From a virus: a DNA stretch of 64,000 nt. The DNA is taken from the IMG/VR virus record IMGVR_UViG_3300009528_000013, positions 53,771 to 117,770 of that record. One strand, written 5' to 3'. This document shows positions 22,769 through 44,243 of the stretch, piece by piece. Position 1 is the first letter of the stretch; each line of letters starts with the position of its first letter. The position numbers and the translations under genes are program-made. The notes beneath the pieces are model-generated. The model worked only from the letters and a program-made list of their open reading frames with translations, was not told where the DNA came from and made no database searches.

Positions 22769-25700
22769 GCAAATTCTTGCGATACTCAGGAATCATTCAA
22801 CCCATTGCGATTCAAGATGCTCTCCGTGAGAGAACGATCCAGATCGAGAGTTACGACTTCTTGAAGCGGATGGAACAGTTTCCCGCCGCACTGGTCTCTG
22901 AGGAGTTCGGTGCTTTTTTCAGAATCCCCGGTGTCGATCTGAAGGCTTACGTCGAAGGACCGAATAGGCCTGCTACGAGCGTCCGGGAATTCAGCTTCAA
23001 ATTCCCCTCTACAAAAACGAAGCTCAAATCCCGCCGAGGATCCAAAGCGGAAGAAGGGGAAGCTGGATCGCGTGGGTTGCCTGAAGTATCAGTGGTGAAC
23101 ATAAGTGCAGATACTACGGATGGAATCAAAGTCCTGAAATACAGATCGTGGGGTTGGTTTCAGTGGGATCAGGGCCCCTGGGTCCGGAAGGATTTGGGAG
23201 ATCAATCTACGATTGCAGCCTGGGATGACTCGACCATCGAATGTTCTTTTGCAGGGTTTACGCAAGACGATAATATCGAAGTTTTTCTGATTATCGGTCA
23301 GTCAGTTATCAAGCGTGGTGGAATTGAGATCATCTTCGACAGTGGGAATCCTGTCTATCTGGGTGCTCCGTTCACCTTCATCATCCGGGAGGATGTGGGA
23401 GGAACGCTCTACGACATCTCGCAGAGTTGTATGGTTCAGCAGCAAGAATCCGAAACAGCGCTTGGAGCCTCAACGGATACTCTTTATATCAGTGCTGTTG
23501 AGAAGTTTCGGGGGATCACCTTCGAGTTCGATGAATTTCTAACCGGAGCAACTCTGACCTTCGAGTACTCTCAGGGATCCTTCGCGGCTTGGGGCGACCT
23601 CAGTAGCTATATGACGGACGGAACGAGCGATTTTAGTCAGGACGGGACCATAACGATCACTCCACCGTTTAACTGGACCAAGGCCGGACAAAAGGTCGGT
23701 GAGGACGGCGGAGATGACATCGTTGTCGAGAGATTTTGGCTGAAGATCACAGTCTCAGCTTGGGGAAGCGGAACCGCAAAAATCAGATATTTGACGAGAC
23801 GGTATTTAGCAGTTGGTCAAGACGGAGATGCGATTGAGATCGGAGTCAATTTCGAGCAAATCGAGGAGACGGATGACGAGAGGGTAACTGAAGACGTAAT
23901 CATTCGACCGAGTGATTCGGATTCCTCGGTTTTTGTACCGGCGACTTGGAAAAAAAATCTCCCGGTTGAACTCCTTCTTGGAAGTGGATCCGGGTCAGAT
24001 CCTTCATCTTCGCTATTGGCCGCCTCGGGCTTCTCTGCAAGTTGTCGAGAGGTCGAACAACTGAGCTATACGACTTCGAAACCACAATTCTCCATCTGGG
24101 GAATTCCTCCTTATCCAGCGTACCCGGGTGAAGCTCGTTGTCTTTGTGAAGGCGAGGATCTCGGTAGCGCCGGACGTGTGATTTTGATTGGAATCGGGAA
24201 AGAGGTCTGGAAAGTTACCGAACACACGGGATTTGAATTTGTCTTCAAACTCCGGGATTATTATTCTACGAGCTTGAGTAAGCCATTTGACGTTGAAATT
24301 CGGAGAATGGATTACGATGACGCTTACAATGCCGTCTTCGGAGTGGCATGGAAGCGATATAACAACACCGAATATCGGCCAGTTACCGATGTCCAGGCTG
24401 ATGCGAAAAAGGGGAGATGTACCCCGGCGATTCTCTTTCGCTACGACTTTGATACCGGTGTTTTGGAACAACAGGTGATTGGAGAGCCCATCGCAGAATG
24501 GGAGACCGCGGAGTCTCGTTTCCTCTCCGGCGAGGTTTTTCATCGTAATGGAACAGGAAATCAGAATGGGTGGCCCTGGTGGGAGATTGGTGGCACTCCT
24601 CAGCACGAGACGACGGGAGGAGAAATGATCGCTGTCCCTGAACCGGGGCACTATTCTTCGATCATGTATCCAATTTTTGTCGGACAAATCAATCGTCACG
24701 TCTCCTTGCGCCGAGCGACAAAGTTGATTGAAACGCACGTTTTATACTGGGGCGATCAGTATGACATCGAGCGTTTTCAGTACGGTGACTTAGTGGCGGG
24801 CGAAGATGAATTTGCTCATGGTCGGTTTGCTCTTACTTCTCCGGGGTTTTATTATCGGGTAGTTTGGACTGGAGCACTTGAAACGTCTACGATTGACGAT
24901 GTGCACCTCCGTTTCACTTTTGGACAACCGGGCGTCGTAGTTTGGAGTCCGTATTATCGTAGCTATATCTATCACGATTTTGATTCCAGTCAAACTCTGG
25001 GTGAGCAGAATTACATTGCGGAGGCGGACTACTCGGCTTCCGCATGGAGTCTTGATCGGTACTTTGATCTGGACACCCAAGATCGACAGATCTGCTGCGG
25101 CGCATTGAAAGAGAATTCCGGAACTCCCACTGCCCCAGAAATAATCTATGGGTCGATGGTGTGGAATGATACAAATGTCTCCTTCGTACCTCAGAAGTCC
25201 GATGCTTATGTGACCCGCCATAATCTGAGAACCGGCGCGGGGGCAACCATCTTTCATTCCGCGTCCTCCTCAGTAAGTGGTACGATGTCGGGTCAGGAAG
25301 AAACTTGTACTCCGATTGGTCTGGGATATGACCCCGATCAGGATGTGATTCATCTGACCTTTTTTGATCGGGACACTCTTCGCTATCACTATGCGGTCTT
25401 CGAGGATACTCCGGCCGGCGCAAAGTATTCGATTCAAACTGGATCCAATTTCAGTTTTGACTGGTATCGTCCAATCAAATGTTTTACCTTCCACGACGGG
25501 AAGATGTATGCCGTCTGTACCGATGATCGATTTCAGATTGAAGATGCCTTCCTGATCGAAATTACGTGGAGTAGCCCCGACATTACGATCCGAAAAATTG
25601 GTGTGCTCCGCTCCGGTGATTACTCAGCCGAATCTTTGGTCTGGGTTGGAGACATTCTCTATGGGCTCTCGAAGCCCTCTGGGACGATGTGGTCTTACGG

Positions 25701-26247
25701 AACGAGTTGGGTTCCGAGGGTGCAACTCGCTGATTTTGGGGATGATAATTGTCGGCAGGCTGCAACGAAGCTCAGTCAAGCTGCAAATGCGATTCTTAGA
25801 GTAGATCCTGATCGAGTTGCGATTGTTGAAAAGCGGGAGACTGTTCCTGGTAGTTCTTCAACGCTAGAAGATGAGTTGGTCGAGGTGAAGCCCGAAAAAA
25901 CATGGAAGTTTATTTACGATGGTTGCGCGGTGAGTTGGTCTTTTCAGGAATTAAAGGGTACCGAGTCTTGGGGTTTGACAGGACGTAATCAGAGAGTTCT
26001 GAAGATCTCTAATCCACTTGTTCAGGATCGGCATTTTGCAGAGAAGTTGGCGGAGATTTACGGGAAATACTTCTTCAAGGAGCGGACTCTGCTTCCGATC
26101 ACCGCGAAATATCTTCCGCATTTCGAGCGAGAAGATCTTCTGAAAATTATTTCGAAAGGAGTTGATCCAAGTAAGAGTCGAAGTATCGTCTCCTTTCGAT
26201 TACGTAACTCAAACGGGCAAACAGAAATGGGGTTAGTCGAGCAATGA
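22765..26247 (+). CDS. Large tail-tip/central fibre (Tal or gpJ-like) protein
   Basis: Begins YSGIIQ...TIQIESYDFLKRM; ends ISNPLVQ...AEKLAE...LPHFEREDLLKI, as in tail hub proteins; about 1160 aa. Confidence 0.65.
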   Translation: MSKFLRYSGIIQPIAIQDALRERTIQIESYDFLKRMEQFPAALVSEEFGAFFRIPGVDLKAYVEGPNRPATSVREFSFKFPSTKTKLKSRRGSKAEEGEAGSRGLPEVSVVNISADTTDGIKVLKYRSWGWFQWDQGPWVRKDLGDQSTIAAWDDSTIECSFAGFTQDDNIEVFLIIGQSVIKRGGIEIIFDSGNPVYLGAPFTFIIREDVGGTLYDISQSCMVQQQESETALGASTDTLYISAVEKFRGITFEFDEFLTGATLTFEYSQGSFAAWGDLSSYMTDGTSDFSQDGTITITPPFNWTKAGQKVGEDGGDDIVVERFWLKITVSAWGSGTAKIRYLTRRYLAVGQDGDAIEIGVNFEQIEETDDERVTEDVIIRPSDSDSSVFVPATWKKNLPVELLLGSGSGSDPSSSLLAASGFSASCREVEQLSYTTSKPQFSIWGIPPYPAYPGEARCLCEGEDLGSAGRVILIGIGKEVWKVTEHTGFEFVFKLRDYYSTSLSKPFDVEIRRMDYDDAYNAVFGVAWKRYNNTEYRPVTDVQADAKKGRCTPAILFRYDFDTGVLEQQVIGEPIAEWETAESRFLSGEVFHRNGTGNQNGWPWWEIGGTPQHETTGGEMIAVPEPGHYSSIMYPIFVGQINRHVSLRRATKLIETHVLYWGDQYDIERFQYGDLVAGEDEFAHGRFALTSPGFYYRVVWTGALETSTIDDVHLRFTFGQPGVVVWSPYYRSYIYHDFDSSQTLGEQNYIAEADYSASAWSLDRYFDLDTQDRQICCGALKENSGTPTAPEIIYGSMVWNDTNVSFVPQKSDAYVTRHNLRTGAGATIFHSASSSVSGTMSGQEETCTPIGLGYDPDQDVIHLTFFDRDTLRYHYAVFEDTPAGAKYSIQTGSNFSFDWYRPIKCFTFHDGKMYAVCTDDRFQIEDAFLIEITWSSPDITIRKIGVLRSGDYSAESLVWVGDILYGLSKPSGTMWSYGTSWVPRVQLADFGDDNCRQAATKLSQAANAILRVDPDRVAIVEKRETVPGSSSTLEDELVEVKPEKTWKFIYDGCAVSWSFQELKGTESWGLTGRNQRVLKISNPLVQDRHFAEKLAEIYGKYFFKERTLLPITAKYLPHFEREDLLKIISKGVDPSKSRSIVSFRLRNSNGQTEMGLVEQ

Positions 26248-27098
26248 ATCTGGTCGTAGGTGGAACGGGCCCGTGCGTCTTTTATCTTGCGAGCACGGAA
26301 GTATTTATTACAAATTGGAATTTCGAAGTCAACCTGACTGATTGGACGGGAAAGCCCGCTGCGGGCAATATCGCCCGAATCGAAGATGTTTTAACGTTCT
26401 GGGGCGAGTACTCGATGAAGGTCGATGCGAGCAGTGATCTGAATGCCTATGCCCTTACGACAGTCGAGACTTCGGCAGAGCTTTGGGGAAGGTCATTTAT
26501 CCTGGAGTTTGCAATCCGCACCGATGTCGACCGGGATATTAAAATCTTGATCAAGGACGTTGATGATTACCAAACGTTCAATCAAACATTTACTGCCGAG
26601 AGCGGGAAGTTCACACATTATTTCTATTACTTCGTCTTTCTGCCGTTGGGCAGTCCTGTGATTGGGCCAACTGAAATTGAAGTTCGACTCTACGGAACCG
26701 ATACTATGCTCGGGCTTTCGTATTTTGATAACGTAAATCTCTATGAGGTCACGGAGAAAATAAATCTTCGAGTTCCGGAGGTTTTTGAGTCTGTTTTTGG
26801 GAAGGAGTTGGAAGCACGATTTGAACTTTTATCGGGTCGAACTCAGGAATATCTCCGAGGATGGCGCTTCCAAGCGAGTATGGCTTACGAGTATTTGACA
26901 AAAGTAGAAGAAGAGAAGCGCACGAGGATCTCGGACAGTGACCTAATGGTCTTCCAGCCGCACGACGACAACGAGTTCATGGTGGTTTCCAGGTGGAACG
27001 GAGATTTTGCGAGAACCTATTTCGGTGATATTTATGTGGGGCATACGGGAAGTATCAACTTAATCGGAGCGCATCTTCTAAACAAATCTCCAGTTTAG
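26244..27098 (+). CDS. Putative distal tail (Dit-like) protein with N-terminal carbohydrate-binding-like beta sandwich
   Basis: NWNFE...WTG...GEYSMKV...YFDNVNL CBM-like pattern; C-terminal RFELLSGR...GWRFQASMAYEYL. Confidence 0.45.
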   Translation: MNLVVGGTGPCVFYLASTEVFITNWNFEVNLTDWTGKPAAGNIARIEDVLTFWGEYSMKVDASSDLNAYALTTVETSAELWGRSFILEFAIRTDVDRDIKILIKDVDDYQTFNQTFTAESGKFTHYFYYFVFLPLGSPVIGPTEIEVRLYGTDTMLGLSYFDNVNLYEVTEKINLRVPEVFESVFGKELEARFELLSGRTQEYLRGWRFQASMAYEYLTKVEEEKRTRISDSDLMVFQPHDDNEFMVVSRWNGDFARTYFGDIYVGHTGSINLIGAHLLNKSPV

Positions 27099-27118
27099 AA
27101 AAGAAAGGAGCAACCACA

Positions 27119-27577
27119 ATGTCGGAAGGCGAAGTTGCGAAGAGAGATGACAATCGGGTCCCCGTAGAACTTCTCCTCGACCCGGATGGAAAACCCCGGC
27201 AGCGGCGGGGATCAATTTTCGGCGGGGGACTTACCCGGGTCGACGCAAACGAGCATTACCGGGCGTACCATATCAGCCTCGATGCGAACGTGCCCTGGGC
27301 CAATGCGGTACATATCGACGTTGGAACAGATCTTCAGGCGAGGTACGGCGCTGATGGGCGAATCAGAGCGCAGGCAGGTTTCATTATCACGGACCAGGAT
27401 ATCCAGGTTCGTTTCAATGGATTGACCGAAGACGAGATTCGAATTGACGTGACGACTTGGGGCAAAATCTTTGAGCTTTCAGTAGGTGATCTCGGAGTCT
27501 ACGATATTTATCTTGCGAATTACCTACCGAGCGGTGCTGCGCCGGCAGCGGCCGTTTTTATCTTTGTTTCAGGATAG
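27119..27577 (+). CDS. Hypothetical protein
   Basis: AAGGAG SD; tightly packed in the operon. Confidence 0.65.
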   Translation: MSEGEVAKRDDNRVPVELLLDPDGKPRQRRGSIFGGGLTRVDANEHYRAYHISLDANVPWANAVHIDVGTDLQARYGADGRIRAQAGFIITDQDIQVRFNGLTEDEIRIDVTTWGKIFELSVGDLGVYDIYLANYLPSGAAPAAAVFIFVSG

Positions 27578-27586
27578 GAGGAACTG

Positions 27587-28555
27587 ATGCCGCGTACAAG
27601 GGATGTCCCGGATTCCAGAACTATGTCTGAAGAGATTCAACTTTTCAATGCTGGTTTCAGAACCGGAAAAGGAAAGCAGTCCGCAGTTCTGGTGAAACGA
27701 TTTCGGGGTCTTGGCGATGTCTTGCAGGTTTTACCTGCTTTGAAGGCATTGAAGGGAAAGTACGGACCGAAGACGAAACTGGTCTTCGGGACTTCACCAA
27801 TCTTCTTTCCGTTGCTTCGACGATTCGATTTCATCGACCGTTTGGTGAATGAAAAGCAGGCCGAGGTGAAAGGACGATACGACCTGGTAGTCGATCTCCA
27901 GAACAAAGTTGATTTTCTTCCAATCTGCTGCGAAGCACCGAGGCAAGATCTCTTTGCGAGATTACTGGAGCTAAATCCTCAATGTTACTGTCCGCGGTTC
28001 GACTTTCCGATTTTGAAGAGCGAAATTGTAAAGGCAAGAACAATTCTGCAAAGGGCAGGTTGGCGAGGTGAAAAGTTGTTCGGTTTACACCTGATGGCAT
28101 ATTCCGCTATTCGAACCTGGCCCGTGGAACGCAATCTTGAATTGGTTGAGCGGTTATCGGACCGAGAGGGATGGAAGATTTTGATTTTGGAGAGTCATGC
28201 AGTCCGAGAGCAATTTCGGAAATTCGATCACGTAATTGTGCCTGACAAGACCGCCTTGATCGATCTGTTGGGGTTGCTCTCGTTTTGTGAGTATCTCGTT
28301 TGTCCAGATTCGGGCATTATGCACCTGGCAGGCCTTCTCCAAATTCCTTCGGTCGCCTTATTCGGACCGATCCCACCGGAGTTTCGGATCGGGTACTATC
28401 CCAAAACTACCGGTCTCAGTTTAAGAGTTGACTGCAATCCATGTTGGGACTGGCAGACGCATGCTTGTCATAAGCGGCCTCATTATCGCCAGTGTCTCAA
28501 GAAGATCACCGTTGAAATGGTGATTAACACATTGGAGGATATTGGATGTTTCTGA
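27587..28555 (+). CDS. GT9-family glycosyltransferase (heptosyltransferase-like)
   Basis: RFRGLGDVL...DLVVDLQ...RTWP...LVCPDSGIMHLAGLLQIPSVALFGP. Confidence 0.9.
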   Translation: MPRTRDVPDSRTMSEEIQLFNAGFRTGKGKQSAVLVKRFRGLGDVLQVLPALKALKGKYGPKTKLVFGTSPIFFPLLRRFDFIDRLVNEKQAEVKGRYDLVVDLQNKVDFLPICCEAPRQDLFARLLELNPQCYCPRFDFPILKSEIVKARTILQRAGWRGEKLFGLHLMAYSAIRTWPVERNLELVERLSDREGWKILILESHAVREQFRKFDHVIVPDKTALIDLLGLLSFCEYLVCPDSGIMHLAGLLQIPSVALFGPIPPEFRIGYYPKTTGLSLRVDCNPCWDWQTHACHKRPHYRQCLKKITVEMVINTLEDIGCF

Positions 28556-29541
28556 CAGCTCGAGTACTGTTCCTGAACGAAGAGGACTATATCTGGTACG
28601 TTCTAAAGTCGATGTACGATGCTGTCGATGCAATTGTGATCGTCGAAGGATGTATCGGAGAGTACGGAAGGATTGAGGGTTTTTATTCCAAATCCGGACT
28701 CTCGATAGATCGTAGCTCCGAGGAGATTGAACGATTCATCGCCAACGACGATCCGGATGGAAAGGTTTGGAATTACAAATACGGTTTTGCGAAAAACTAC
28801 GCGGAATTGGCAAACCATGCAGTGGATCTTTTTCCACGAGAGACCACTCATTTCCTCAACGTAGATGCGGATGAATGTTACAAGGCGTTGGACATTTTGC
28901 GAGTTCGGCAGATGTTCTCGGATCATCCGAGATTGTGTGGCGTTGCTGTGGATCGGATCCATTTTTATCTGGACTTCTGGACTCGCCGGATTTCAAAGAA
29001 AATGGGCAAATTGGAACCGACTGGCGGAACGATGTTCAGAAAGTTCTATCCAGGAGAGTACTATCCCGAGAAAAGCGCTGAACACAATCCTTACTTCGAG
29101 GGCGAACCTCTGATAAATTGGTGGCTACCTTGGATTGCTCAAGATGACATCGAAACAGGAATCAAAGATGCACAGGAACAAGGGCTCGATGGAATTACAT
29201 TGCGAAAGCGGGTAATTCCACAGTATCATTACGGGTGGGTTCGGAAACGTGAAAAGATGATCGAGCGGGTTCTTCAGACGTATCGCAGATCTGATGCGTA
29301 TTCCGGGCTGAATGTTCGGGCTGAATCTTCGGATCAGGAGCTAACCGAGTTCATCGAAACGTATAATCCGATCTGGACGGGGATCTTGCCCGATGAAGAT
29401 GTTCTTCAAAAATTTCCTCCATCGAAGGTCAATCGGATCCGATGCGACCAAATCTTGTGGGAGGCAGTGGGAGAGCATCCGCTTCCAATGAAAGATCATC
29501 CCTTCTTCGGCATGCAGAGGAGGGACTTCGGATGGCTTTGA
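28546..29541 (+). CDS. GT-A-fold glycosyltransferase, paralogue 1 of 4
   Basis: LNEEDYIWYVLKSMYDAVDAIVIVEG; DxD motif NVDADE; HYGWVR. Confidence 0.8.
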   Translation: MFLTARVLFLNEEDYIWYVLKSMYDAVDAIVIVEGCIGEYGRIEGFYSKSGLSIDRSSEEIERFIANDDPDGKVWNYKYGFAKNYAELANHAVDLFPRETTHFLNVDADECYKALDILRVRQMFSDHPRLCGVAVDRIHFYLDFWTRRISKKMGKLEPTGGTMFRKFYPGEYYPEKSAEHNPYFEGEPLINWWLPWIAQDDIETGIKDAQEQGLDGITLRKRVIPQYHYGWVRKREKMIERVLQTYRRSDAYSGLNVRAESSDQELTEFIETYNPIWTGILPDEDVLQKFPPSKVNRIRCDQILWEAVGEHPLPMKDHPFFGMQRRDFGWL

Positions 29542-30533
29542 AACTTACAGCATTGATGATTGTAATAAATGAAGAGGATTGGGTCTGGTGGTCGCTGAGA
29601 TCGATCTACGATGTAGTGGATCATATCGTCATAGTGGAAGGTGTGGCTAAAGATAAATGGAAGGAATTTGGTTCTTTCGATCGGTTTGGATTGTCACTTG
29701 ATAATACGGAGGGAGAGATTGAGAGGTTTATCGAAGAATACGATTCGGAAGGTAAGATTAAGTATATCCAGGCTGGATTCCAGCCGACGATTGGAACGCT
29801 GAGAGAGCTTGCTTTACGGGAGTGCCCGAAGGATACGGATTATATTTTAGTGGCAGATGCGGATCATCTGTATGATGAGTCGCAACTTCAGCAGGTTAAG
29901 AGTCTCTGTGAACAGTATCCAAACATTCGAGTCGTCTATTCCGATCAATTGATCTTCTTTCTGGATATGCACCATGTTCTCCAGATCAATGAAGAATACA
30001 AGCGGCCGTATGGTCATCATTTGGCGTGTCTCTTCTACCGATACGATGAGCGATTGAGATATAAGGGGGAGATTTCTTTTTTCGATAACCAGTTTGAACC
30101 GGAGGGCTGGTTGCATCCGATCCTCGAGGTTCGCCCCGATCAGTTGGAAGGAACGAAAGATGATGTCGCAGTATATCCGCCGATGTTTCAGTTCTGGCAT
30201 TTTGGATGGGTTGGGCGTAGAATGGCGATAGAGGCGCATCTGCTGAAGACGACTTGGTCGAGAGTGCTCAGGTTGCAATGGCTTCTGAAACACGATCCAG
30301 AGAAAGTCACGGATACGGACCGAAACTATTGGATGCCATTTATAGATATGAGTGCCGAGGAGATCTTGGATTATCACCGATTGTATCACAAGATCTGGAC
30401 AGGTATTTTCGATGACAAAGTTGGAGAGCGAGTTGTTCCGTATTTAGGTAAGTATCCGATGGATCAGATGCTTCGCAGTCATCCATTTTTTGGAAAGAGT
30501 AAGCATTGGTTTGGACTGGAAGAAGGACTATAA
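29532..30533 (+). CDS. GT-A-fold glycosyltransferase, paralogue 2 of 4
   Basis: INEEDWVWWSLRSIYDVVDHIVIVEG; VADADH; HFGW. Confidence 0.8.
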   Translation: MALKLTALMIVINEEDWVWWSLRSIYDVVDHIVIVEGVAKDKWKEFGSFDRFGLSLDNTEGEIERFIEEYDSEGKIKYIQAGFQPTIGTLRELALRECPKDTDYILVADADHLYDESQLQQVKSLCEQYPNIRVVYSDQLIFFLDMHHVLQINEEYKRPYGHHLACLFYRYDERLRYKGEISFFDNQFEPEGWLHPILEVRPDQLEGTKDDVAVYPPMFQFWHFGWVGRRMAIEAHLLKTTWSRVLRLQWLLKHDPEKVTDTDRNYWMPFIDMSAEEILDYHRLYHKIWTGIFDDKVGERVVPYLGKYPMDQMLRSHPFFGKSKHWFGLEEGL

Positions 30534-30539
30534 AGGAAA

Positions 30540-30649
30540 GTTTAAGAGCGCTATCCATCAAAATAAGGATTGAAATAAGAGTTCGTATCCCGCTGTCGAT
30601 TACATCGCAGTAGTTTAAGAACGCTATCCATTAAAACAAGGATTGAAAC
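30540..30649 (+). CRISPR. Cas-less CRISPR mini-array: repeat (30540-30576), spacer (30577-30612), repeat (30613-30649)
   Basis: R1 GTTTAAGAGCGCTATCCATCAAAATAAGGATTGAAAT and R2 GTTTAAGAACGCTATCCATTAAAACAAGGATTGAAAC (37 bp, 4 mismatches); ATCC/GGAT stem kept in both; 3' ATTGAAA(C/T) handle typical of Cas6-processed type I/III repeats; 36-nt spacer. Confidence 0.88.
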
Positions 30650-30681
30650 ATCGTTCACTGGCAGCATCAGGAGATGATATA

Positions 30682-31677
30682 GTGAAAATTGGTTGTCACA
30701 TGCTTACTCTCAATGACCAGCCTTATGTTTACTGGGCCTTAAAATCATCATATCCGGCAGTCGATTACATCGCCGTTGTTGAGGGTGCGATCACGCACGA
30801 TGTTTTCCATAATAAGTACGACCACGTTCCTGCAACAAGTGAGGGGCTATCGTTGGATAATACTGGCGAGGAAGTCCAAAGGTTCATTGCCAATGACGAT
30901 CCCGAAGGGAAGGTGCATTATGAACAAGTTGGCTTTGTGCACAGTTGGGAGGATCTTCGGAACAAAGCGCACTCGATGTTGCCCGAGGATACCGACATCG
31001 AACTCATTCAGGATGGGGATTGTCTCTTTAAGCCAAGAAATATTCTGAAGGCAAAAAAAGTCTTAAAGACATATCCCCAAGTTTATGAAGTGGCGGAATA
31101 CTGTTGGTCATTTATCTGGGACTTCCGGCACGTCCTACATACTGGAATAGAACGAAAGGATTATTGGCGTTGGTGTTTTTTCAGGTATAACCCGACGATG
31201 TATTTTGAAAGAGAACGAACAATTTGGTTCGGTGACGGGAGTACCAGTGAACGAACCAAGATTGACTGGATTGATTTTTTGCGTCTTCGTGAATATGAGT
31301 ACGGAGATCAGAAATACATTGTTTACAGTCCCGACTTGCTGGACGTATTCCACTTTGGAAATGTCCAGTTGAAGGAGCGAATGGAAGTTCAGCTCATGCG
31401 GAAGTTTTTCGCTCCACAGACGATGGAGAAGAACCGTCTCGTACTTCCTGATCGGCGACGGGAGACGCTGATGGACTGGCTGAGGATGTACCACAAATTC
31501 TATACCAAGGTCTTAGATACCGATGTTGAACATGTGGATGAGTTCAAGGGATCGTATCCTCTCGATGGGCTGATTCAGAAACATCCTTATTTCGATAAAC
31601 CGGAAGAGTGGTTCAGACACGAGGACCCCGAGGGTGATCAGAGGTCTCCTTTCTACGATTTGAAATGGTGGGACTGA
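30682..31677 (+). CDS. GT-A-fold glycosyltransferase, paralogue 3 of 4 (carries the spacer-like site)
   Basis: GGAG SD and GTG at 30682; LNDQPYVYWALKSSYPAVDYIAVVEG; IQDGDC; HFGN. Confidence 0.8.
   Translation: MKIGCHMLTLNDQPYVYWALKSSYPAVDYIAVVEGAITHDVFHNKYDHVPATSEGLSLDNTGEEVQRFIANDDPEGKVHYEQVGFVHSWEDLRNKAHSMLPEDTDIELIQDGDCLFKPRNILKAKKVLKTYPQVYEVAEYCWSFIWDFRHVLHTGIERKDYWRWCFFRYNPTMYFERERTIWFGDGSTSERTKIDWIDFLRLREYEYGDQKYIVYSPDLLDVFHFGNVQLKERMEVQLMRKFFAPQTMEKNRLVLPDRRRETLMDWLRMYHKFYTKVLDTDVEHVDEFKGSYPLDGLIQKHPYFDKPEEWFRHEDPEGDQRSPFYDLKWWD
30742..30777 (+). other. Synonymously diverged protospacer-like site matching the mini-array spacer
   Basis: AAATCATCATATCCGGCAGTCGATTACATCGCCGTT versus spacer AAGAGTTCGTATCCCGCTGTCGATTACATCGCAGTA: 27/36 identical; both encode KSSYPAVDYIAV; 5' flank TTA. 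Confidence 0.9.
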
Positions 31678-31697
31678 ATTGTTGAAGAGGTACCCGC

Positions 31698-31904
31698 ATG
31701 TCGAAAGATCTGGGAGTAAGTGATCGAGCGAAGTCGATATTAGATATTCAAAAGAAAGTCTTGCGGGACTTGAATCGTTTAAGTAAACTGGTCGAAGTAT
31801 TAAGCGAAGAGGAGCTTCAAGAAGTCGAAACTGAAATGCAGGAATTTCTTCGAGAGGCGCAAGTAAGACTCTGGTCACTGCAAGGAAAGCTCTGGGGTAT
31901 ATAA
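31698..31904 (+). CDS. Small coiled-coil hypothetical protein
   Basis: GAGG SD; fills the operon gap; heptad-like pattern. Confidence 0.6.
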   Translation: MSKDLGVSDRAKSILDIQKKVLRDLNRLSKLVEVLSEEELQEVETEMQEFLREAQVRLWSLQGKLWGI

Positions 31905-31910
31905 TTTTAA

Positions 31911-32414
31911 ATGAGGCTTAAACTGGACATCGGAGGAGGCGCACGGCGGAATGAGTGGGTTGTAATCGATCTTGACCGATCGCTCCGACCCGATGTCGTA
32001 GCCGATGCGCAATTTCTTCCATTTCAGGATACAGTTGCCGATGAACTCTGGGCGTCCCATATTCTGGAGCATTTTCGTCAGGAGTCTTCGATTGTTATCC
32101 TTCAAGAGTGGAATCGTGTACTGAAGGCAGAAGGCAAAATTACGGTCTATGTTCCCAATGCTCTTGAGGCCTTCCATCGTTGGACTCATGGAGAATGTGA
32201 GTACGAGTGGCTTAACATAGTGATTTTTGGATATGATCCCGATGCCAGTCCCTTTATGGCGCACAAATGTATGTTCTGGCGAGGGTCCCTAAGAAATTTG
32301 TTGAATCGAGCAGATTTTGTATCTCTCGAATATCTCGTAGCGCGAGGCGAAGCAAGGGGAACGTGGGAAGAATTCGGATACAGAGGAGTTAAGAGCAGAG
32401 AAAGGACATACTGA
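31911..32414 (+). CDS. Class I SAM-dependent methyltransferase (small-molecule/glycan type)
   Basis: LDIGGG, DVVADAQFLPF, ASHILEH. Confidence 0.85.
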   Translation: MRLKLDIGGGARRNEWVVIDLDRSLRPDVVADAQFLPFQDTVADELWASHILEHFRQESSIVILQEWNRVLKAEGKITVYVPNALEAFHRWTHGECEYEWLNIVIFGYDPDASPFMAHKCMFWRGSLRNLLNRADFVSLEYLVARGEARGTWEEFGYRGVKSRERTY

Positions 32415-32415
32415 A

Positions 32416-33045
32416 ATGGTTCAGCGAATACTGGCGCTGAGTCCACATACCGACGATTGCGAATTCGGTTGTGGTGGTAGTCTGGCTCGATTTCTCGCTG
32501 AAGATAAAGAAGTCTTCTATGTGGCTTTCTCATCTGCCGAGAAATCTGTTCCACCCGAGTTGCCAAAAGGGATTCTCCGAGAGGAAGTTAAAAAGGCAAC
32601 CGCTGCGCTTGGGATTACAAGAGAGAATCTGATTCTTTTCGATTACGAAGTCCGGGATTTCCCTGCTCATCGTCAAAGTATTCTCGAAGATATGATCGAA
32701 CTGAGAGACGTAATCGAACCGGATTTGGTCTTTCTGCCCTCGGCAGATGATACACATCAGGATCATCAGGTTATTGCAGCCGAAGGATTCCGCGCCTTCA
32801 AGAAATCAACTCTTCTTGGATACGAAATTCCCTGGAACAACTTATCCTTCAGGACAGAATGTTTCATCTTTCTGGAGGAGCAATTCATCGAGTTGAAGAT
32901 CCGAGCGTTGAAATGCTACTTCTCACAGTTGGGAAGGGATTACATCAATGAAGATTTTATCCGGAGTCTCGTTCGCGCACGAGGTGGTCAGATCGGGACT
33001 CAATACGCGGAGGCCTTCAATGCAATTCACTGGATTATCCGATAG
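32416..33045 (+). CDS. PIG-L/LmbE-family deacetylase
   Basis: SPHTDDCEFGCGG and HQDH metal-binding motifs. Confidence 0.9.
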   Translation: MVQRILALSPHTDDCEFGCGGSLARFLAEDKEVFYVAFSSAEKSVPPELPKGILREEVKKATAALGITRENLILFDYEVRDFPAHRQSILEDMIELRDVIEPDLVFLPSADDTHQDHQVIAAEGFRAFKKSTLLGYEIPWNNLSFRTECFIFLEEQFIELKIRALKCYFSQLGRDYINEDFIRSLVRARGGQIGTQYAEAFNAIHWIIR

Positions 33046-33679
33046 AAATTTGAAGTACTATACAGACCGGTTCAGGAAACTTGGTGATTCTCCAGAGACT
33101 TTCTGGAATAGCCAGGAGTCGCAAGAGGTAAGATTCCGAGCGCTGACTCGGATCGGAGATCTCGATACTAGATCGATTTTGGACGTTGGATGTGGAACGG
33201 GAGATTTTCTCAAATTTCTGATCGAAGAAGAGTATCAGATCGCTCGGTACTTGGGTTGCGATCTCGTTGAAGCGGCGATTCAAATTGCCCGAAAGAAACA
33301 CCCATGCCATAGCTTTTTGATATTCGACGTGCGCGGGCTGAATTTCGATGACCAATTTGATTTCGTCTTTGGATCGGGATTGTTTGCCTTAGATGAAAAA
33401 GACTGGCATGCTAGGGTGATTGAGATTGTGACAAAGATGTACGCCCTCTGTCGGATTGGGGTCGGGGTAAATTTTCTGAGCAAGTTCGGGCTGGGCCGGG
33501 ACCTCGATTCCTTTTATTCGGATCCAGGCGAGATATTCACACTTCTTACAAAAGAGATTTCTCCGCGAGGGGCCTTTTTAGATCACACCTACAAAGAAAA
33601 TGACTTCACGATCTTTCTTTATCGGCCGGATTTCACCAAGTATCCCCAAGCTCTTGAAACCAATCGAAGAAGGTCCTGA
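33020..33679 (+). CDS. Class I SAM-dependent methyltransferase
   Basis: GGAGG SD and ATG at 33020; WNSQESQEVRF, ILDVGCGTGD, YLGCDL, FDFVFGSG. Confidence 0.85.
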   Translation: MQFTGLSDRNLKYYTDRFRKLGDSPETFWNSQESQEVRFRALTRIGDLDTRSILDVGCGTGDFLKFLIEEEYQIARYLGCDLVEAAIQIARKKHPCHSFLIFDVRGLNFDDQFDFVFGSGLFALDEKDWHARVIEIVTKMYALCRIGVGVNFLSKFGLGRDLDSFYSDPGEIFTLLTKEISPRGAFLDHTYKENDFTIFLYRPDFTKYPQALETNRRRS

Positions 33680-33691
33680 GAGGAGGTACTG

Positions 33692-34411
33692 ATGAGTTGC
33701 ACCGTCGCCATACACCAGCCCAACTTTGCTCCCTGGCTCGGCTATTTTTACAAGATGGCACACTGCGATATCTTCGTCTTTCTGGACGATGTTCCATTTT
33801 CAAAGGGTAGCTTCACCAATCGTTGCAGCATCTGGACGCCGAGGGGACCCCAATGGCTCACCGTTCCCATTCGGACGAAGGGGCGCTCCGGGCAGAAGAT
33901 TCAGAGTGTCGAGATAGTGAATACTCCGTGGCGACCGAAAATGGTGCGGACGCTTCAGCAGAATTATGGCAAGGCGGAGTACTTTGAGCGTTGGTTTCCG
34001 GTCATCGAGTGCGTACTACGAAGGCCTTACGAAAAGCTCTGTGATCTGAACATAGAGTTGATTCAGGTTCTTGCGAGAGTGTTCGGAATCGGATCTGAGT
34101 TCATCCTTGCTTCCGATTTGAAAGTTCAAGCGACGAAAGAGAACAGGATCATTGAAATCTTGAGAGCTGTCGGAGGCAGTGAATATCTCTCGGGTAACGG
34201 AGCGAGGAGTTATCAAATCGCTGAGAATTTCGAGGATTCCGGATTTCGCCTGACGTATTCGAGCTTTCAACAATTCGAGTACCCTCAACTCGGAAATGAG
34301 TTCATCCCCGGGTTGTCCATTCTTGATCTATTTTTTAATTGTGGTACAGACAGCATCCGGTATCTCAAAAGAGGGACAAATGAAGCTCACAGTTCAGATG
34401 GTGGTGATTAA
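33692..34411 (+). CDS. wbqC: WbqC-like family protein
   Basis: AIHQPNFAPWLGYFYK...FVFLDDV...WLTVP...YLSG...YPQ...FIPGLSILDLFFN signature. Confidence 0.9.
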   Translation: MSCTVAIHQPNFAPWLGYFYKMAHCDIFVFLDDVPFSKGSFTNRCSIWTPRGPQWLTVPIRTKGRSGQKIQSVEIVNTPWRPKMVRTLQQNYGKAEYFERWFPVIECVLRRPYEKLCDLNIELIQVLARVFGIGSEFILASDLKVQATKENRIIEILRAVGGSEYLSGNGARSYQIAENFEDSGFRLTYSSFQQFEYPQLGNEFIPGLSILDLFFNCGTDSIRYLKRGTNEAHSSDGGD

Positions 34412-35351
34412 CGAAGAGGATTACGTTTACTTCGCGCTGAAGTCGATCTATGATGTGGTCGAAGAGATCGTCATCGTGGAGGGCGCCGCCCGAAATCGAT
34501 ATGGAAGAGAGGCAATCGAGCAAGGGTTTTTAACCGAAGAAGGTCTCTCAACCGACGGTACACAGGCGGAGATTCAACGCATGCTCGATGAAGACGCAGA
34601 TCATAAGATCAAGTACATCCGGTACGGTTGGCAGCAATCGGTAAATGACTTGCGAAGACATTGCCATCAGAATGTCAGTTCGAATACAGATTATTGTTTA
34701 ATCTTGGATTCGGACGCGGTGTATCGACCAAGAGAGATCCAATGTCTCCGGAATCTGGTAATCGGATATCCTTCAATCTGGATGATCGCGGCGAAAGAGT
34801 TGATGTTTTTCCTCGATTTGAATCATATCCTCACAGTCGGAGAAGATTATCTTCAGATGTGTAACTATATCGACTCCGGGCTTTTTTGGAAATATCTCCC
34901 CGACATTGAGATTCTTGGACAACGACCTTATCGACTTGGCCAGAAAATGGAATTGGGTCTTCGGCGTACTCGATTCCAAGAATTAAAAACGCTTGACAAG
35001 AAAGGCGAAAAACTATATCTTTTCGAGCCGGCCGGTCTCTTTGATATTCTACACTTCGGATGGGTGCATACTCCGGAGAAAATGGAACGACATATTCTGC
35101 GATGGGCGCATGCGACTCGAAACCTGGTTGCACGAGGCGGTGGCGACGAAAGAATGAAGCGATGGTGTGCACCGATCCTTGAATCGAACGACGGAGAAAT
35201 CATGGAGTACTATCAAACGTATCATAAAATCTGGACTGGAATTTACGATGAGTCGGTCGAAGAACATCTCGAAAAATTTACTGGGACTTATCCTGTGGTT
35301 ATGTTGGAGCATCCGTACTATGGAAAGAGTGCTGAGGAATTGGGATGGTAA
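34380..35351 (+). CDS. GT-A-fold glycosyltransferase, paralogue 4 of 4
   Basis: INEEDYVYFALKSIYDVVEEIVIVEG; ILDSDA; HFGWVH. Confidence 0.8.
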   Translation: MKLTVQMVVINEEDYVYFALKSIYDVVEEIVIVEGAARNRYGREAIEQGFLTEEGLSTDGTQAEIQRMLDEDADHKIKYIRYGWQQSVNDLRRHCHQNVSSNTDYCLILDSDAVYRPREIQCLRNLVIGYPSIWMIAAKELMFFLDLNHILTVGEDYLQMCNYIDSGLFWKYLPDIEILGQRPYRLGQKMELGLRRTRFQELKTLDKKGEKLYLFEPAGLFDILHFGWVHTPEKMERHILRWAHATRNLVARGGGDERMKRWCAPILESNDGEIMEYYQTYHKIWTGIYDESVEEHLEKFTGTYPVVMLEHPYYGKSAEELGW

Positions 35352-35983
35352 CGCTTGCCGATCTGGGACCGAGAGCGAAAGAGCATCGTCCGCGCTGGAC
35401 GAGAGATGAAATTGCTTTAGATTACGGAATCTGGGAAGATGATCGCGTACTGGATATTGGATGCGGTCCGGGTGCTCCTCGGGTTCAGCTTACTGAATCG
35501 GCATTCCCCCGGGCGGATGTACTGGTCGATATGAATCCTGATCTGATTCCGGTATATCAAGGTCGGAAGTTTTTGCTGTCCGGAGTTGAGGCGCTGCCCT
35601 TCAGGAGCGAAAGCTTTGATTTTATCTGGTGTTCTCATATCCTTGAACATATTCTCGATCCAAAAGCGGCCTGCGAAGAATTGATGCGAATCGGTGCACG
35701 TGGCCGGATCAAGACGCCATCGCCTTTCAAAGAGATGCTTCATCCTCTACCATACCACTACTGGTTGGTTTCTTTTTATACGAATACTTTGGTTTTTGAA
35801 AAGAAGCCGACTTTCCTTTCTTCTGCATTATGGAACGAAGTAATCGATAGTTCTGCCGTGAAGGCCTGGAAGGATTATGTTCTATTCGCAAATGCAAAAA
35901 AAAGCCGTGTTAATCTTCCTCACCGATTCCGGGAGACTGTTTTCGATTGGGTAGGTGAATTCCGAGTAGAAGTATATCAATGA
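35345..35983 (+). CDS. Class I SAM-dependent methyltransferase
   Basis: VLDIGCG, VEALPFRSESFDFIWCSHILEH. Confidence 0.85.
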   Translation: MVTLADLGPRAKEHRPRWTRDEIALDYGIWEDDRVLDIGCGPGAPRVQLTESAFPRADVLVDMNPDLIPVYQGRKFLLSGVEALPFRSESFDFIWCSHILEHILDPKAACEELMRIGARGRIKTPSPFKEMLHPLPYHYWLVSFYTNTLVFEKKPTFLSSALWNEVIDSSAVKAWKDYVLFANAKKSRVNLPHRFRETVFDWVGEFRVEVYQ

Positions 35984-35996
35984 AAGAAGGATTCCG

Positions 35997-37130
35997 ATGG
36001 AGCATAAACTGAAGGTATTATTCGATGCTGGCGGGTTGTGGCAGTTTGTTCCAAAGAGATTTAAGGCAATCATGTCGCAACGGTTTAGCTGTAATTTTCT
36101 TGACCGTGAGCATCCACGAGATTATGTCCAAAGGAGCTTGGCGAAATGGGCGGATGTAATTTTTGTGGATTGGGGATTGGCGTGGGCGCAGTTTTATCTG
36201 GAGAATTTTCCAGAGAAGCGGATTATTGTACGAACGCATCGCGGCGATGTCTGGCATGAGAATTCACCGTTCTACTATTGGGAGAATGCCTCCGCAGTTC
36301 TGTTCATGAGTAATCATTACAGGAATCTTTTCCTTGAGAATTGTGTTGCAAATGTTCTGGATGATATGCAGGAACGATGTATAACTGTACCCAGATTGGT
36401 AGATGAACAGCACTGGCGGTTTTTGAATGATTTCATAAATCAGCGTGACTATGGTCGGAGATTAGGTATGTTGGGCCGGTGTATTCCACGGAAACGAGTT
36501 GTCGAATTTGCTAAATTGCTCGATGGGCCATTAGCAATGGAATATCCAATATCTAATCGTTGGACGGAAGCGAATTGTCTTTCACCGAATTTTTCGTTGA
36601 GCTTGCTTGGTTTTGAGGAAAATGATCGAACACACTTTCCAGATTACATTGCTGAACTTGAGTCTGTAGTTCGATCTTCGGATCGTATCCAGGTTCTTGA
36701 CCATGTGAGTGGAGATGCGGTTATAAAGTGGTTTGCTGATATTGATTTTGTAATCAGTTTCTCTGAGGATGAAAGTTGGCACGCTGCAATTACGGAAGGA
36801 ATGCTCTGCGGGTGCGTGCCGGTGATATTTAATTGGCCAGGTGCGGATGAGATGCACCCAGTGGAGTGCATTTTTCAAGACGATGTGGAGTTGGTGAATT
36901 ATTTGAAAAAGCAATCCCCGCCATTGAGGTATGTGGATGGGTATGGGTGGTTGCCCAAAGTCCAAAAAAAGCGAATTAGTAGATCTGCGTGGGCGCGTAC
37001 ATGGTGCTTGGAACGTTACAGCCTGGAAGACGTAACAGATCTATATGCCGATATTATCAAGGGAGATGAAGTTCCATTAGATCTGAATCCGCAGGATATT
37101 ATCCCATTTCGGAAAAGTCAGCAACGATGA
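35997..37130 (+). CDS. GT-B (GT4-like) glycosyltransferase
   Basis: ADVIFVDW, LGMLGRCIPRK, DFVISFSEDESWHAAITEGMLCGCVPVI (ExxxxxxxE motif). Confidence 0.8.
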   Translation: MEHKLKVLFDAGGLWQFVPKRFKAIMSQRFSCNFLDREHPRDYVQRSLAKWADVIFVDWGLAWAQFYLENFPEKRIIVRTHRGDVWHENSPFYYWENASAVLFMSNHYRNLFLENCVANVLDDMQERCITVPRLVDEQHWRFLNDFINQRDYGRRLGMLGRCIPRKRVVEFAKLLDGPLAMEYPISNRWTEANCLSPNFSLSLLGFEENDRTHFPDYIAELESVVRSSDRIQVLDHVSGDAVIKWFADIDFVISFSEDESWHAAITEGMLCGCVPVIFNWPGADEMHPVECIFQDDVELVNYLKKQSPPLRYVDGYGWLPKVQKKRISRSAWARTWCLERYSLEDVTDLYADIIKGDEVPLDLNPQDIIPFRKSQQR

Positions 37131-37630
37131 AAAACTATATTGCAAAAAAATGCCTTGCTTTTTCAGACGTTTTACGTTATTTTCTATTCTTGGAATCTGG
37201 GAAAACGATCCGAGATGATCGAGTATTAGAGCAACTTGTTCGTAGTCAATGCTTCCACAATAGACAGGTGAATCCCTTTGGAGTCTGGACGCTTGGCTAC
37301 AAGACCGATAGGAGAAATGAGCAGATTGTCGAATGGGTCGAGATCAGTCTGTCTACGAAGGAACTCTGCGTGACCGCCGTGGATCCGATTTGGAATCCGC
37401 TCTTGAGAAAGTGGAATGGGAATCTTCGAGATTGTAGCAAACGGATTACTCATGGGACCGGTTCAATTCACCCAGAGAAACAAAAGATTACGGTTGTGCA
37501 GAAATTTTCTGAGAAGTTGAACGGAGAATTCGAAGTCATTGATGGCTTTCACCGGTCTATGCTGATGCTCAGCGAAGGAACCGAGAAGATAGATGCAATT
37601 GTTGGTTTAACCGAAGCGACTTATTTTTGA
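37127..37630 (+). CDS. Hypothetical protein with ParB/Srx-like motif
   Basis: C-terminal FEVIDGFHRS...IDAIV. Confidence 0.55.
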   Translation: MKNYIAKKCLAFSDVLRYFLFLESGKTIRDDRVLEQLVRSQCFHNRQVNPFGVWTLGYKTDRRNEQIVEWVEISLSTKELCVTAVDPIWNPLLRKWNGNLRDCSKRITHGTGSIHPEKQKITVVQKFSEKLNGEFEVIDGFHRSMLMLSEGTEKIDAIVGLTEATYF

Positions 37631-37641
37631 GGAGGAGAAAA

Positions 37642-38448
37642 ATGCCTGAGCTGATCGAAGTCCATTGTCCCTTACACGACCATCGAACGAAGTCCGAATT
37701 TCTGTTCGAATGCCCGCCGAACAACTGGGCTCAGGAACAGCCATTAAAAGTCGAGCGGTGCGAAGAATGCGGGCTGCTTTTTTTCAACCCGAACATCTCC
37801 GCGGCGGATCGAAAGGCGTATCATAAAAAAGAGTACTACATCGCCGATCCCAAAGGGTGCATCGGGTACCCGAATTACATCGAGGAAGATCACCTCGGAG
37901 CGAAGATTTACTTCGGGAAGCTTACTCTCTCTTGGTTCAATAGACGTTGGAAAGACAAAACCCGGAAGCCCTGTTCGTTGATCGATTTCGGGTGCGCCAC
38001 CGGGCACATGAGCAAACCGTATTTCGATCGGGGATGGAGAGTCGTTGGAATCGAGTTCTCTAAGTGGGCAGTGGATTGGGGCAGAGAGCATTTGGGCCTG
38101 GAACTCCGGTGTCAGGACATGGACGAACTCGTTCTGGACAATGAAGAGATTTTCGATTGTGTGCTGCTCTGGGATAGTCTGGAACATTCGCAGCATCCTC
38201 GGAAATTGCTTCGGAAGATCTTTACGCACAGTTCGGAAAATATGCTCATGATTATCCAAATGCCGGATACTGCGAAGTACGGAGATGATCCTCTGCATCC
38301 CTTCTGGTCGTTGTACCAGCATTGTTTCCACTACGATCATTCCACGCTGAATCTTTTGCTGAAGTTGGAGGGGTTTAAGACATCCCGGAAACTCCCATCG
38401 TCGCAGATGGATGAGATGTTGGTCATTGCCGAAAAGATAAAGGAGTAG
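37642..38448 (+). CDS. Class I SAM-dependent methyltransferase with N-terminal Zn-binding region
   Basis: CPLH...CEECGLLFFNP; LIDFGCATG; VGIEFS; WDSLEH. Confidence 0.85.
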   Translation: MPELIEVHCPLHDHRTKSEFLFECPPNNWAQEQPLKVERCEECGLLFFNPNISAADRKAYHKKEYYIADPKGCIGYPNYIEEDHLGAKIYFGKLTLSWFNRRWKDKTRKPCSLIDFGCATGHMSKPYFDRGWRVVGIEFSKWAVDWGREHLGLELRCQDMDELVLDNEEIFDCVLLWDSLEHSQHPRKLLRKIFTHSSENMLMIIQMPDTAKYGDDPLHPFWSLYQHCFHYDHSTLNLLLKLEGFKTSRKLPSSQMDEMLVIAEKIKE

Positions 38449-38451
38449 GCT

Positions 38452-39600
38452 ATGATTCAAAAATGGACCGTTGATCAGTTTGGAGTTGCAGTCGCTGGCG
38501 TTTTGACGAAATTCAAGGATCATATCTTCGACCTTGATCCAGATTTGGTCCAGCTTCCATTGCACCTGAATAGTCCCTCTCCCGAAGATTGTGCAGCAGT
38601 CATCGATTCGGACACGAGGCTGATCGGTAAGTTCATTCTGCCGGTGGGCGTGAACAACGTTCCCCACGCGGCCTTCAAGGAAGTGTTGGAGAAATATCGG
38701 GGCCTCATTCGGATTTGGGATTTCGGAGGAGAGCCAGAGACTCGTCCCGATCAGCCAGGGTGCCGGTTCTCGGGGGACGAGGAGGAATTCGTTCGTCAGG
38801 TTCGGACGTTCTACGAGATGGGCAAAAAGATCGATCCTGAAAACGTAATCGGAGGCTGCGGGTGGATTACTCCGACGTTCAATGGCAGCTTTGGGAATGA
38901 GGATCGAAGTCAGTTTTTCGAGAACTGTTTTGCACTTGGGATTGGACAGGTGCTAGACTTTATCAGCCTGAATTTCTATACTTACGGATACGGAGGAACA
39001 AAGAATATCCTTCAGGGGATTTCGAAAGTCAATGAGATTCTCGCCTGGTACCGCGTTGAGAAACCTGTCGTCGTCGCAGAATGCGGAGTTCCCTGTACCG
39101 GAGATCCAAAATTCCTTCACATTATCCAGACCCCAGAGCGTCAGGCGATTTCTCTCGTCAAACAACACGTGCTTTTCAATTCGGTCGGGATCGATTACGC
39201 GATCTGGTTTGCCCTGAAACATCTGGGGTGGGGTCTGTTAGACACGAGAGGGAAGCCGAGGCCGTCTTATTATGCGATGCGAACGATCAAGGATTTCTTG
39301 AAGGGAGCGATCTTCAAAACGCAGATGAAAGCGTATCCCAGTCGAACAGTCGAGGAACGTTGGTGCACCGACAAGATCAACTGGTTCGTTTTCGAAAGAG
39401 ATGACAAGGAGATCCACGTAATCTGGACTACGGAAAGACTGGAGATGGATCGAGAGTTTCCATTTAAGGACGTTTCTGTTTTCGGTGTAATTGGGCAACC
39501 GATTGATGTATCGGGAGGATCGATTCGATTGACCGACTCGCCTCTCTATTTTATTGCGGACCCGGGCGAGCTTCATTCGTATAATTTCCTGCTTCTCTGA
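38452..39600 (+). CDS. Clan GH-A-like TIM-barrel glycoside hydrolase
   Basis: WDFGGEPE (acid/base position), DFISLNFY, KPVVVAECG (nucleophile position), WGLL...KPRPSYYAM. Confidence 0.7.
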   Translation: MIQKWTVDQFGVAVAGVLTKFKDHIFDLDPDLVQLPLHLNSPSPEDCAAVIDSDTRLIGKFILPVGVNNVPHAAFKEVLEKYRGLIRIWDFGGEPETRPDQPGCRFSGDEEEFVRQVRTFYEMGKKIDPENVIGGCGWITPTFNGSFGNEDRSQFFENCFALGIGQVLDFISLNFYTYGYGGTKNILQGISKVNEILAWYRVEKPVVVAECGVPCTGDPKFLHIIQTPERQAISLVKQHVLFNSVGIDYAIWFALKHLGWGLLDTRGKPRPSYYAMRTIKDFLKGAIFKTQMKAYPSRTVEERWCTDKINWFVFERDDKEIHVIWTTERLEMDREFPFKDVSVFGVIGQPIDVSGGSIRLTDSPLYFIADPGELHSYNFLLL

Positions 39601-39616
39601 TCGGGGGTGAACGAAT

Positions 39617-40009
39617 ATGGCAGCGATAGTTGAGGCTACAATCGACGTAGGAGGTGGTCCTTACGGAGTAGGTTGTGATGAGACTGCTGAAAAAACTTTC
39701 GTTGCGAATTATGGTGATGATACAATCTCCGTCATTCATACACCATCGAATACCGTGAGCGCAACTATCGGGGTAGGGGCAGGCCCTTACAGAGTCGCTT
39801 GCGATGAGGCTGCAGGGAAAACATTCATAACGAATTGGAACGATGATAGTGTCTCAGTAATTCACACGGGATCCGATACGGTAAGCGCAACGATTGGAGT
39901 GGGTGTTCAGCCTGCTGGTGTTGCCTGTGATGAGACTGTTGGAAAGACCTTTGTGGTGAATTATGGACCGGATACAGTCTCCGTAATCACCGGGTACAAC
40001 GGGTGTTAA
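39617..40009 (+). CDS. Three-repeat YVTN-type beta-propeller protein
   Basis: Three TIxVGxxPxxVxCDExxxKTFxxN repeats; ends GYNGC. Confidence 0.8.
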   Translation: MAAIVEATIDVGGGPYGVGCDETAEKTFVANYGDDTISVIHTPSNTVSATIGVGAGPYRVACDEAAGKTFITNWNDDSVSVIHTGSDTVSATIGVGVQPAGVACDETVGKTFVVNYGPDTVSVITGYNGC

Positions 40010-40024
40010 ACTAAGAAAGGACTT

Positions 40025-42863: not shown

Positions 42864-42874
42864 AGGAGGATCTG

Positions 42875-44227: not shown

Positions 44228-44243
44228 AGACCCTGAAAACGAT

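Follow-up and report, generated by a model that had tools for sequence, protein, structure and literature searches.

Between the second and third of three tandem glycosyltransferase genes, an uncultured phage carries a CRISPR mini-array whose only spacer is a synonymous version of a segment of the gene just downstream. We favor, at a probability of roughly 0.6, the reading that the phage borrows the Cas proteins of its host, most likely those of a type I-B system, against related phages, its own allele having been silently recoded. The DNA analyzed here (the window) comprises the last 64 kb, at the 3′ end, of an IMG/VR virus record of 117,770 bp with an estimated completeness of 87%. PHROGs matches to a primase/helicase and to a tape measure protein indicate a tailed phage.

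Re-reading of the window bore out the coordinates and letters originally given for the repeats, the spacer and the match in the downstream gene. The array consists of repeat R1 (30540-30576), a 36-nt spacer (30577-30612) and repeat R2 (30613-30649), all on the + strand, with the spacer in the sense orientation relative to the glycosyltransferase genes. R1, a member of direct repeat family D1 ending ATTGAAAT, and R2, ending ATTGAAAC, are each 37 nt long, start 73 nt apart and are identical at 33/37 positions. Both cover positions 1-37 of the Rfam model CRISPR-DR7 (RF01320) on the + strand and score above its gathering cut-off of 37 bits (37.8 bits for R1; 50.5 bits, E 2e-9, for R2), confirming them as a genuine pair of Cas6-type CRISPR repeats. 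The ATCC/GGAT stem singled out earlier as conserved is present, but it is the 5-bp stem of the DR7 model. In the entire 117,770-bp record, R1 and R2 are the only sites within 3 mismatches of the repeat, and the repeat core gave 0 chance matches in 100 shuffles. Neither cas6 nor cas1 was found in the 117.8-kb record and no cas3 above the cut-off, the best match to the cas3 core being a generic helicase at 12.7 bits; the Cas-less character first claimed for the window is thus valid for the whole record.

The array occupies the 148-nt gap between the stop codon of the second glycosyltransferase gene (GT2, stop at 30533) and the start codon of the third (GT3, GTG 30682). Since GT1 and GT2 overlap, whereas the array fills the gap between GT2 and GT3, the array seems to have been inserted into an operon with otherwise little space between genes. 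Only a 6-nt linker (30534-30539, + strand) without leader or promoter separates the GT2 stop from R1, and no promoter-like site was found upstream of R1. Behind R2, a 32-nt stretch (30650-30681, + strand) leads to the start of GT3 and holds the ribosome-binding site GGAG (30670-30673), the real start being GTG 30682 and not TTG 30643 inside R2. The longest GT3 open reading frame begins at that TTG, so gene callers may annotate an N-terminal extension overlapping the array. Translation of the array as protein was ruled out, the spacer being flanked by stop codons in the GT3 frame.

The resident homologue of the spacer lies at 30742-30777 (+ strand) inside GT3 (30682-31677, + strand) and is identical to it at 27/36 positions, a match that at this level or better is expected 1e-4 times by chance on both strands of the whole 117.8-kb genome. 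Spacer and resident site both translate to KSSYPAVDYIAV in the GT3 frame, although they differ at spacer positions 3, 4, 5, 6, 9, 15, 18, 33 and 36, with a switch of serine codon family (AGT versus TCA) at positions 4-6. The original observation that all nine mismatches are synonymous was confirmed, and when nine substitutions were drawn at random 2,000,000 times, no draw was equally silent. This shows that the spacer descends from a protein-coding GT3 allele and that the guide was acquired from such an allele. The longest uninterrupted match to GT3 spans 14 nt (positions 19-32), and the homology begins and stops exactly at the borders of the 36-nt spacer, as canonical spacer uptake would give. 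An origin as a piece of a longer duplicated gene fragment was ruled out by these same borders, and copying from the paralogues GT1 or GT2 was ruled out by their different peptides.

GT3 relatives other than this record were absent from IMG/VR in single-protein and alignment searches, and one metagenome scan yielded two informative contigs, L045 and L046. Contig L045 (SDBU01002100.1) is colinear with window positions 23974-38275 at 72-77% nucleotide identity, with only 45-55% of four-fold sites identical, and it carries the same cassette directly 5′ of its own GT3. Compared from the 9-nt end of GT2 through R1, the spacer and R2 to the ribosome-binding site, the two cassettes are identical at 151 of 157-160 positions (~95%), which departs from the coding average at p < 1e-9 and from neutral sites at ~1e-31. 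The L045 spacer (7896-7931) is 34/36 identical to that of the window, with changes at positions 15 and 18, the latter a flipped-out position in type I complexes. In the stretch 30650-30681 we found 3 substituted positions and a 1-nt indel, while the coding DNA just after it is ~73-78% identical, so that identity has fallen to background once GT3 starts and before the target site is reached. The end of high identity at this point means that the conservation reflects purifying selection on the cassette, not a recent conversion tract, and the comparison shows the entire cassette, spacer included, to be under such selection. The same comparison bears on the idea that the array is a relic devoid of present function, left behind when the phage once recombined with a host array. 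Recombination with host arrays has been proposed in the literature as a source of mini-arrays, and the lack of leader and cas genes would suit a relic, but a non-coding cassette that stays ~95% identical across two phages, against ~50% at neutral sites, disfavors it so strongly that we give it the smallest probability of all the readings considered.

In the second contig, L046, whose GT3 is 69% identical to that of the window, GT2 and GT3 overlap and there is no array, which marks an empty site. The array site is therefore polymorphic among relatives, being occupied in the window and in L045 and empty in L046. Three extra genes, encoding a small ORF, a SIS-domain protein and a dual-specificity phosphatase, lie between GT2 and the array in L045 (L045:6593-7839). 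On its left side the conserved cassette of the window begins with the last codons and stop of GT2 (GGACTATAA, 30525-30533), and these 9 nt persist before R1 of L045 as non-coding DNA, a remnant that points to an older GT2-array-GT3 arrangement.

The spacer was compared with three DNA alleles (resident, L045 and L046), among which the resident allele is closest at 27/36, followed by L045 (25-26/36) and L046 (22/36). A pattern covering every synonymous version of the 12-residue peptide retrieved no spacer-matching allele from IMG/VR, and none was found in GenBank phages by protein and DNA search or in contigs L045 and L046. A perfect hit of the 36-mer in IMG/VR had been anticipated, and nothing matched. 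Of the proposal that the spacer came from a relative's allele of this glycosyltransferase, descent from GT3 is upheld, while none of the three alleles read is a closer natural source than the resident one; judged from these alleles, the source may have been a relative or the lineage's own ancestor. In the latter case the spacer would derive from the ancestral GT3 and the resident gene would have been recoded under self-targeting pressure, with no rival at the origin. This would agree with the resident allele being the closest one known, and with the differences at positions 3-6 and 33, five in all, which occur in both carriers and are thus older than the carriers' split. Yet a foreign source allele would account just as well for the changes common to both carriers, a guide that matched its own carrier perfectly would be lethal wherever the host could use it, and the serine change from AGT to TCA is unreachable by single silent steps, and we consider a self-derived spacer unlikely.

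Whatever its source, the guide should leave the resident allele unharmed. Mismatch positions 3-5 fall in the type I seed, and positions 6, 18 and 36 are flipped out. Given what is established about the seed pairing that type I systems require, the resident allele should not be bound. The three seed mismatches suggest that the resident allele should be immune and should escape targeting, in agreement with the original proposal that synonymous divergence spares it. The site in L045 has 10 mismatches, which likewise include seed positions 3-5. Immediately 5′ of the resident homologue, the PAM-side triplet TTA (30739-30741, + strand), a leucine codon, is a candidate PAM and is identical at all three alleles read (window, L045 and L046). 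A crRNA from this array would have the same sense as the GT3 mRNA, which fits type I DNA targeting and not type III RNA targeting, and no other seed match of the spacer was found within the phage genome. The orientation and the seed also weigh on a very improbable alternative, in which the crRNA or the cutting by Cas6 tunes the phage's own GT3 through CreA-like interference or operon processing. The cassette sits directly on the 5′ untranslated region of GT3, the 32 nt that hold the ribosome-binding site share its conservation, and the 14-nt match at positions 19-32 is uninterrupted, all of which would be compatible with such a role. Known regulatory cr-like RNAs (CreA, CreR, Cracr), however, pair with a promoter via a PAM-proximal seed and are mismatched distally, and here the pattern is reversed, with a seed broken at positions 3-5 and a distal match within the open reading frame; the shared sense of crRNA and mRNA and the lack of another seed match in the phage speak against it as well.

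Under the favored reading, in which host Cas proteins are turned against related phages, the array would probably be co-transcribed with the glycan operon, as the two point the same way. A host Cas6-type system would cut the transcript 8 nt before the end of each repeat and thereby free one crRNA with a ATTGAAAT handle, which should steer the Cascade-Cas3 of the host onto the DNA of co-infecting relatives still bearing the guide's allele, while nine silent differences, the serine codon-family switch among them, would spare the carrier. The guide lies 93 nt from the immune allele, and we infer that only killer/immunity pairs linked this tightly survive frequent phage recombination; the linkage would have been selected because recombination would otherwise make self-targeting genomes. 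The targeted peptide belongs to the best conserved segments of the glycosyltransferase family and the target lies in an invariant nucleotide-sugar-binding segment, so a rival could escape by silent changes only. A spacer frozen across deep divergence would nevertheless be unexpected if rivals escape quickly, and this keeps a share of probability, low in each case, with the self-derived origin considered above and with the homing and anti-CRISPR roles considered below.

Free-standing homing endonucleases of the T4 type place a killer beside the gene that is cut in relatives, the resident copy being protected by silent polymorphisms. By analogy, the Cas3 of the host might destroy a sensitive rival at GT3, and repair from the carrier genome might copy the array with the immune allele into that rival. 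As in the T4-type case, the same site is occupied or empty among relatives, and the short distance from the guide to its immunized target, together with the 9-nt GT2-end remnant that L045 keeps before R1 though three other genes now intervene, would agree with movement of this kind. In contrast to the T4-type elements, there is no nuclease gene here (that of the host would serve), and a co-conversion tract from the array through the target is not seen between window and L045, where identity drops from ~95% to ~73-78% at the GT3 start, short of a target that a recent event must have co-converted. No sensitive allele is known, and Cas3 degrades DNA processively without making a clean break. We accordingly hold CRISPR-guided homing to be improbable, and we are just as doubtful of the broader view that killer and immunity form a selfish, protein-free unit in this cassette that can spread by repair copying, a natural CRISPR gene drive among phages. 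Such a pair may remove both rivals and recombinants that have lost the immune allele. If true, it would explain why virus mini-arrays so often adjoin their targets, a proximity noted as unexplained in PMC6858448.

Repeats of the same family form another mini-array in this phage, also Cas-less and leaderless, at ~16,780-16,943 of the record on the minus strand, outside the window and 36.8 kb before its start. One complete repeat of 36 nt separates its two spacers, of 34 and 33 nt; a truncated repeat precedes the 34-nt spacer and a decayed one follows the 33-nt spacer. Neither at the nucleotide nor at the peptide level do these spacers match anything in the phage, L045 or L046, nor did they match IMG/VR, and they were rejected as recoded copies of phage genes on the first of these grounds.

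Two separate repeat clusters in one phage would be in keeping with an RNA-based anti-CRISPR, in which the repeats serve as decoys (Racr) or the array yields a viral crRNA-like regulator (Cracr/crlRNA) and the GT3 origin of the spacer is incidental. Such RNAs would soak up Cas6, Cas7 and Cas5 of the host or direct Cascade to a host cas or toxin promoter. Roles of this kind have been documented for phage repeat units and mini-arrays, with type I-B examples among Clostridium phages, and any crRNA made by a phage vies for Cas proteins with those of the host. The present array resembles Racr (PMC10651486) in having phage CRISPR repeats without cas genes that would engage host Cas, and it resembles the viral crRNA-like regulators (bioRxiv 10.1101/2024.10.29.618823; 10.1101/2023.03.03.530964) in having repeats without cas. 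It differs in that Racr is a solitary repeat behind a promoter, whereas here two full repeats enclose a 36-nt spacer, with no promoter-like site, and in that the guide seeds of crRNA-like regulators match host cas or toxin promoters, whereas this guide is plainly an allele of the phage gene GT3. No seed match was found in the fetched cas loci, which exclude those of the true host. A decoy would moreover leave the letters of the spacer unconstrained, yet 34/36 of them are kept against ~50% at neutral sites, and an anti-CRISPR function has in our view a small chance of being correct.

To relate the phage repeat to cellular CRISPR systems, 185,579 species genomes were scanned exactly with the repeat core, which gave 41 loci. 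Many of these are arrays in which 20-109 units recur every 73-74 nt. DR7-type arrays occurred in MAGs of Cloacimonadota, Bacteroidales and Cyclobacteriaceae and in MAGs labelled Desulfobacterales; the 3′ half of the repeat (stem, loop and ATTGAAAC handle) is common across these phyla and the 5′ half is variable. In the arrays L004-L044, which come from MAGs assigned to five phyla or more, the 3′ 26 nt are near-identical and the 5′ 11 nt vary freely. Identical arrays also occurred on short contigs from the same samples (GMC2/GMC3) that had been binned into different phyla, which makes the binning of those contigs doubtful. In a Cloacimonas MAG (L037) the array comes directly after cas5b, cas3, cas1 and cas4 and shares their strand, which marks a type I-B locus. 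Judged by this gene content, the type I-B link holds for a relative of the phage repeat; the repeat hints that the phage's host uses a type I-B system.

The nearest full-length match to R2 (35/37) is a single isolated unit at MAG locus L024, and several MAGs have long arrays that match R2 at 33/37. Matching the repeat to host arrays, originally suggested as a way to host and subtype, has thus provided the family and a type I-B neighbor but not the exact host array, 33-35/37 being the best agreement. The unit in L024 (L024:5207-5243) belongs to a 6.1-Mb MAG labelled delta proteobacterium and lies beside IS630-like transposase fragments, and that genome holds no further copy of the repeat within 3 mismatches. 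Genome G001 has one solitary repeat unit only, next to transposase fragments. Arrays within 3 mismatches of the phage repeat were absent from 400 genomes of the G001 phylum and, apart from G002 itself, from 168 genomes of the G002 phylum. When 978 spacers from the fetched DR7-type arrays were compared with the phage, only chance matches of 15-16 nt appeared. The sole IMG/VR match to the repeat core (L003) was rejected on reading as an AT-rich chance match.

The premise that virus-borne mini-arrays borrowing host Cas are already known is supported by PMC6858448, PMC7099407 and PMC11656645, and reviews and a model paper restate this mini-array layout. Leaderless phage mini-arrays target adjacent genes of close relatives (Faure et al. 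2019, via PMC6858448), and mini-array spacers match regions near the arrays while the orthologous loci of the carrier are mutated (Medvedeva et al. 2019, PMC6858448). As summarized in PMC6858448, PMC7099407 and PMC11656645, the (pro)phage arrays of Faure et al. share with ours a single spacer, host-type repeats, the lack of cas genes and leader, and a spacer corresponding to an adjacent gene whose carrier copy differs. Set against that summary, the array and spacer described here persist across phages with near-saturated neutral sites, the target allele was not found, and two such arrays occur in one uncultured phage whose genome reaches at least 118 kb. The portoglobovirus pair SPV1 and SPV2 likewise has intergenic arrays with nearby targets and mutated orthologous sites in the carrier, and its arrays are thought to act via host Cas in superinfection exclusion (PMC6858448). 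In SPV arrays, however, the leaders resemble those of the host and spacers turn over from strain to strain (SPV1 versus SPV2, PMC6858448), whereas the present array is leaderless with a frozen spacer (34/36), and the SPV hosts are Sulfolobales, whereas the hosts here would be bacterial with a type I-B-like system.

The mini-array layout is thus already described, and what is added here is the conservation in L045, the empty site in L046 and the second array. If the favored reading is correct, the phage provides a clear case, from a phage of bacteria, of one virus turning host CRISPR on another, together with evidence usually missing elsewhere, namely that selection has kept array and guide through deep divergence. 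It also sharpens the literature's open question of why mini-arrays adjoin their targets, which the occupied and empty relatives make testable.

The gene adjoining the array had been called a glycosyltransferase. This is sustained by a GT-A fold and a DxD motif, the assignment being made by fold only, as GT3 hits no Pfam family and a PDB sequence profile reaches only E 0.36. A protein search returned 12 orthologues of GT3 (57-100% identity), likewise without a Pfam hit in any, in which the DxD (D111-x-D113) is invariant. An AlphaFold model of moderate confidence (pLDDT 65.7) gave Foldseek matches to SunS/ThuS, RmlT, SpsA and TarP with E values down to 8e-8, and structure prediction and fold search thus identify GT3, the source gene of the spacer allele, as a GT-A-fold glycosyltransferase. 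The first of the three GT-A-like paralogues, GT1 (28546-29541, + strand), was taken from the ORF list, is 27% identical to GT3 and has N-terminal and DxD columns in common with it in the alignment; the second, GT2 (29532-30533, + strand), has a sub-threshold match to Pfam Glycos_transf_2 (E 6e-4). Around the array, window positions 27587-44567 hold a long one-strand run of glycan-related genes, which includes the three tandem GT-A paralogues as well as genes for a GT9 heptosyltransferase-like protein, a PIG-L deacetylase and methyltransferases. An N-terminal nucleotide-sugar motif is common to all three paralogues, yet the spacer came from the third alone.
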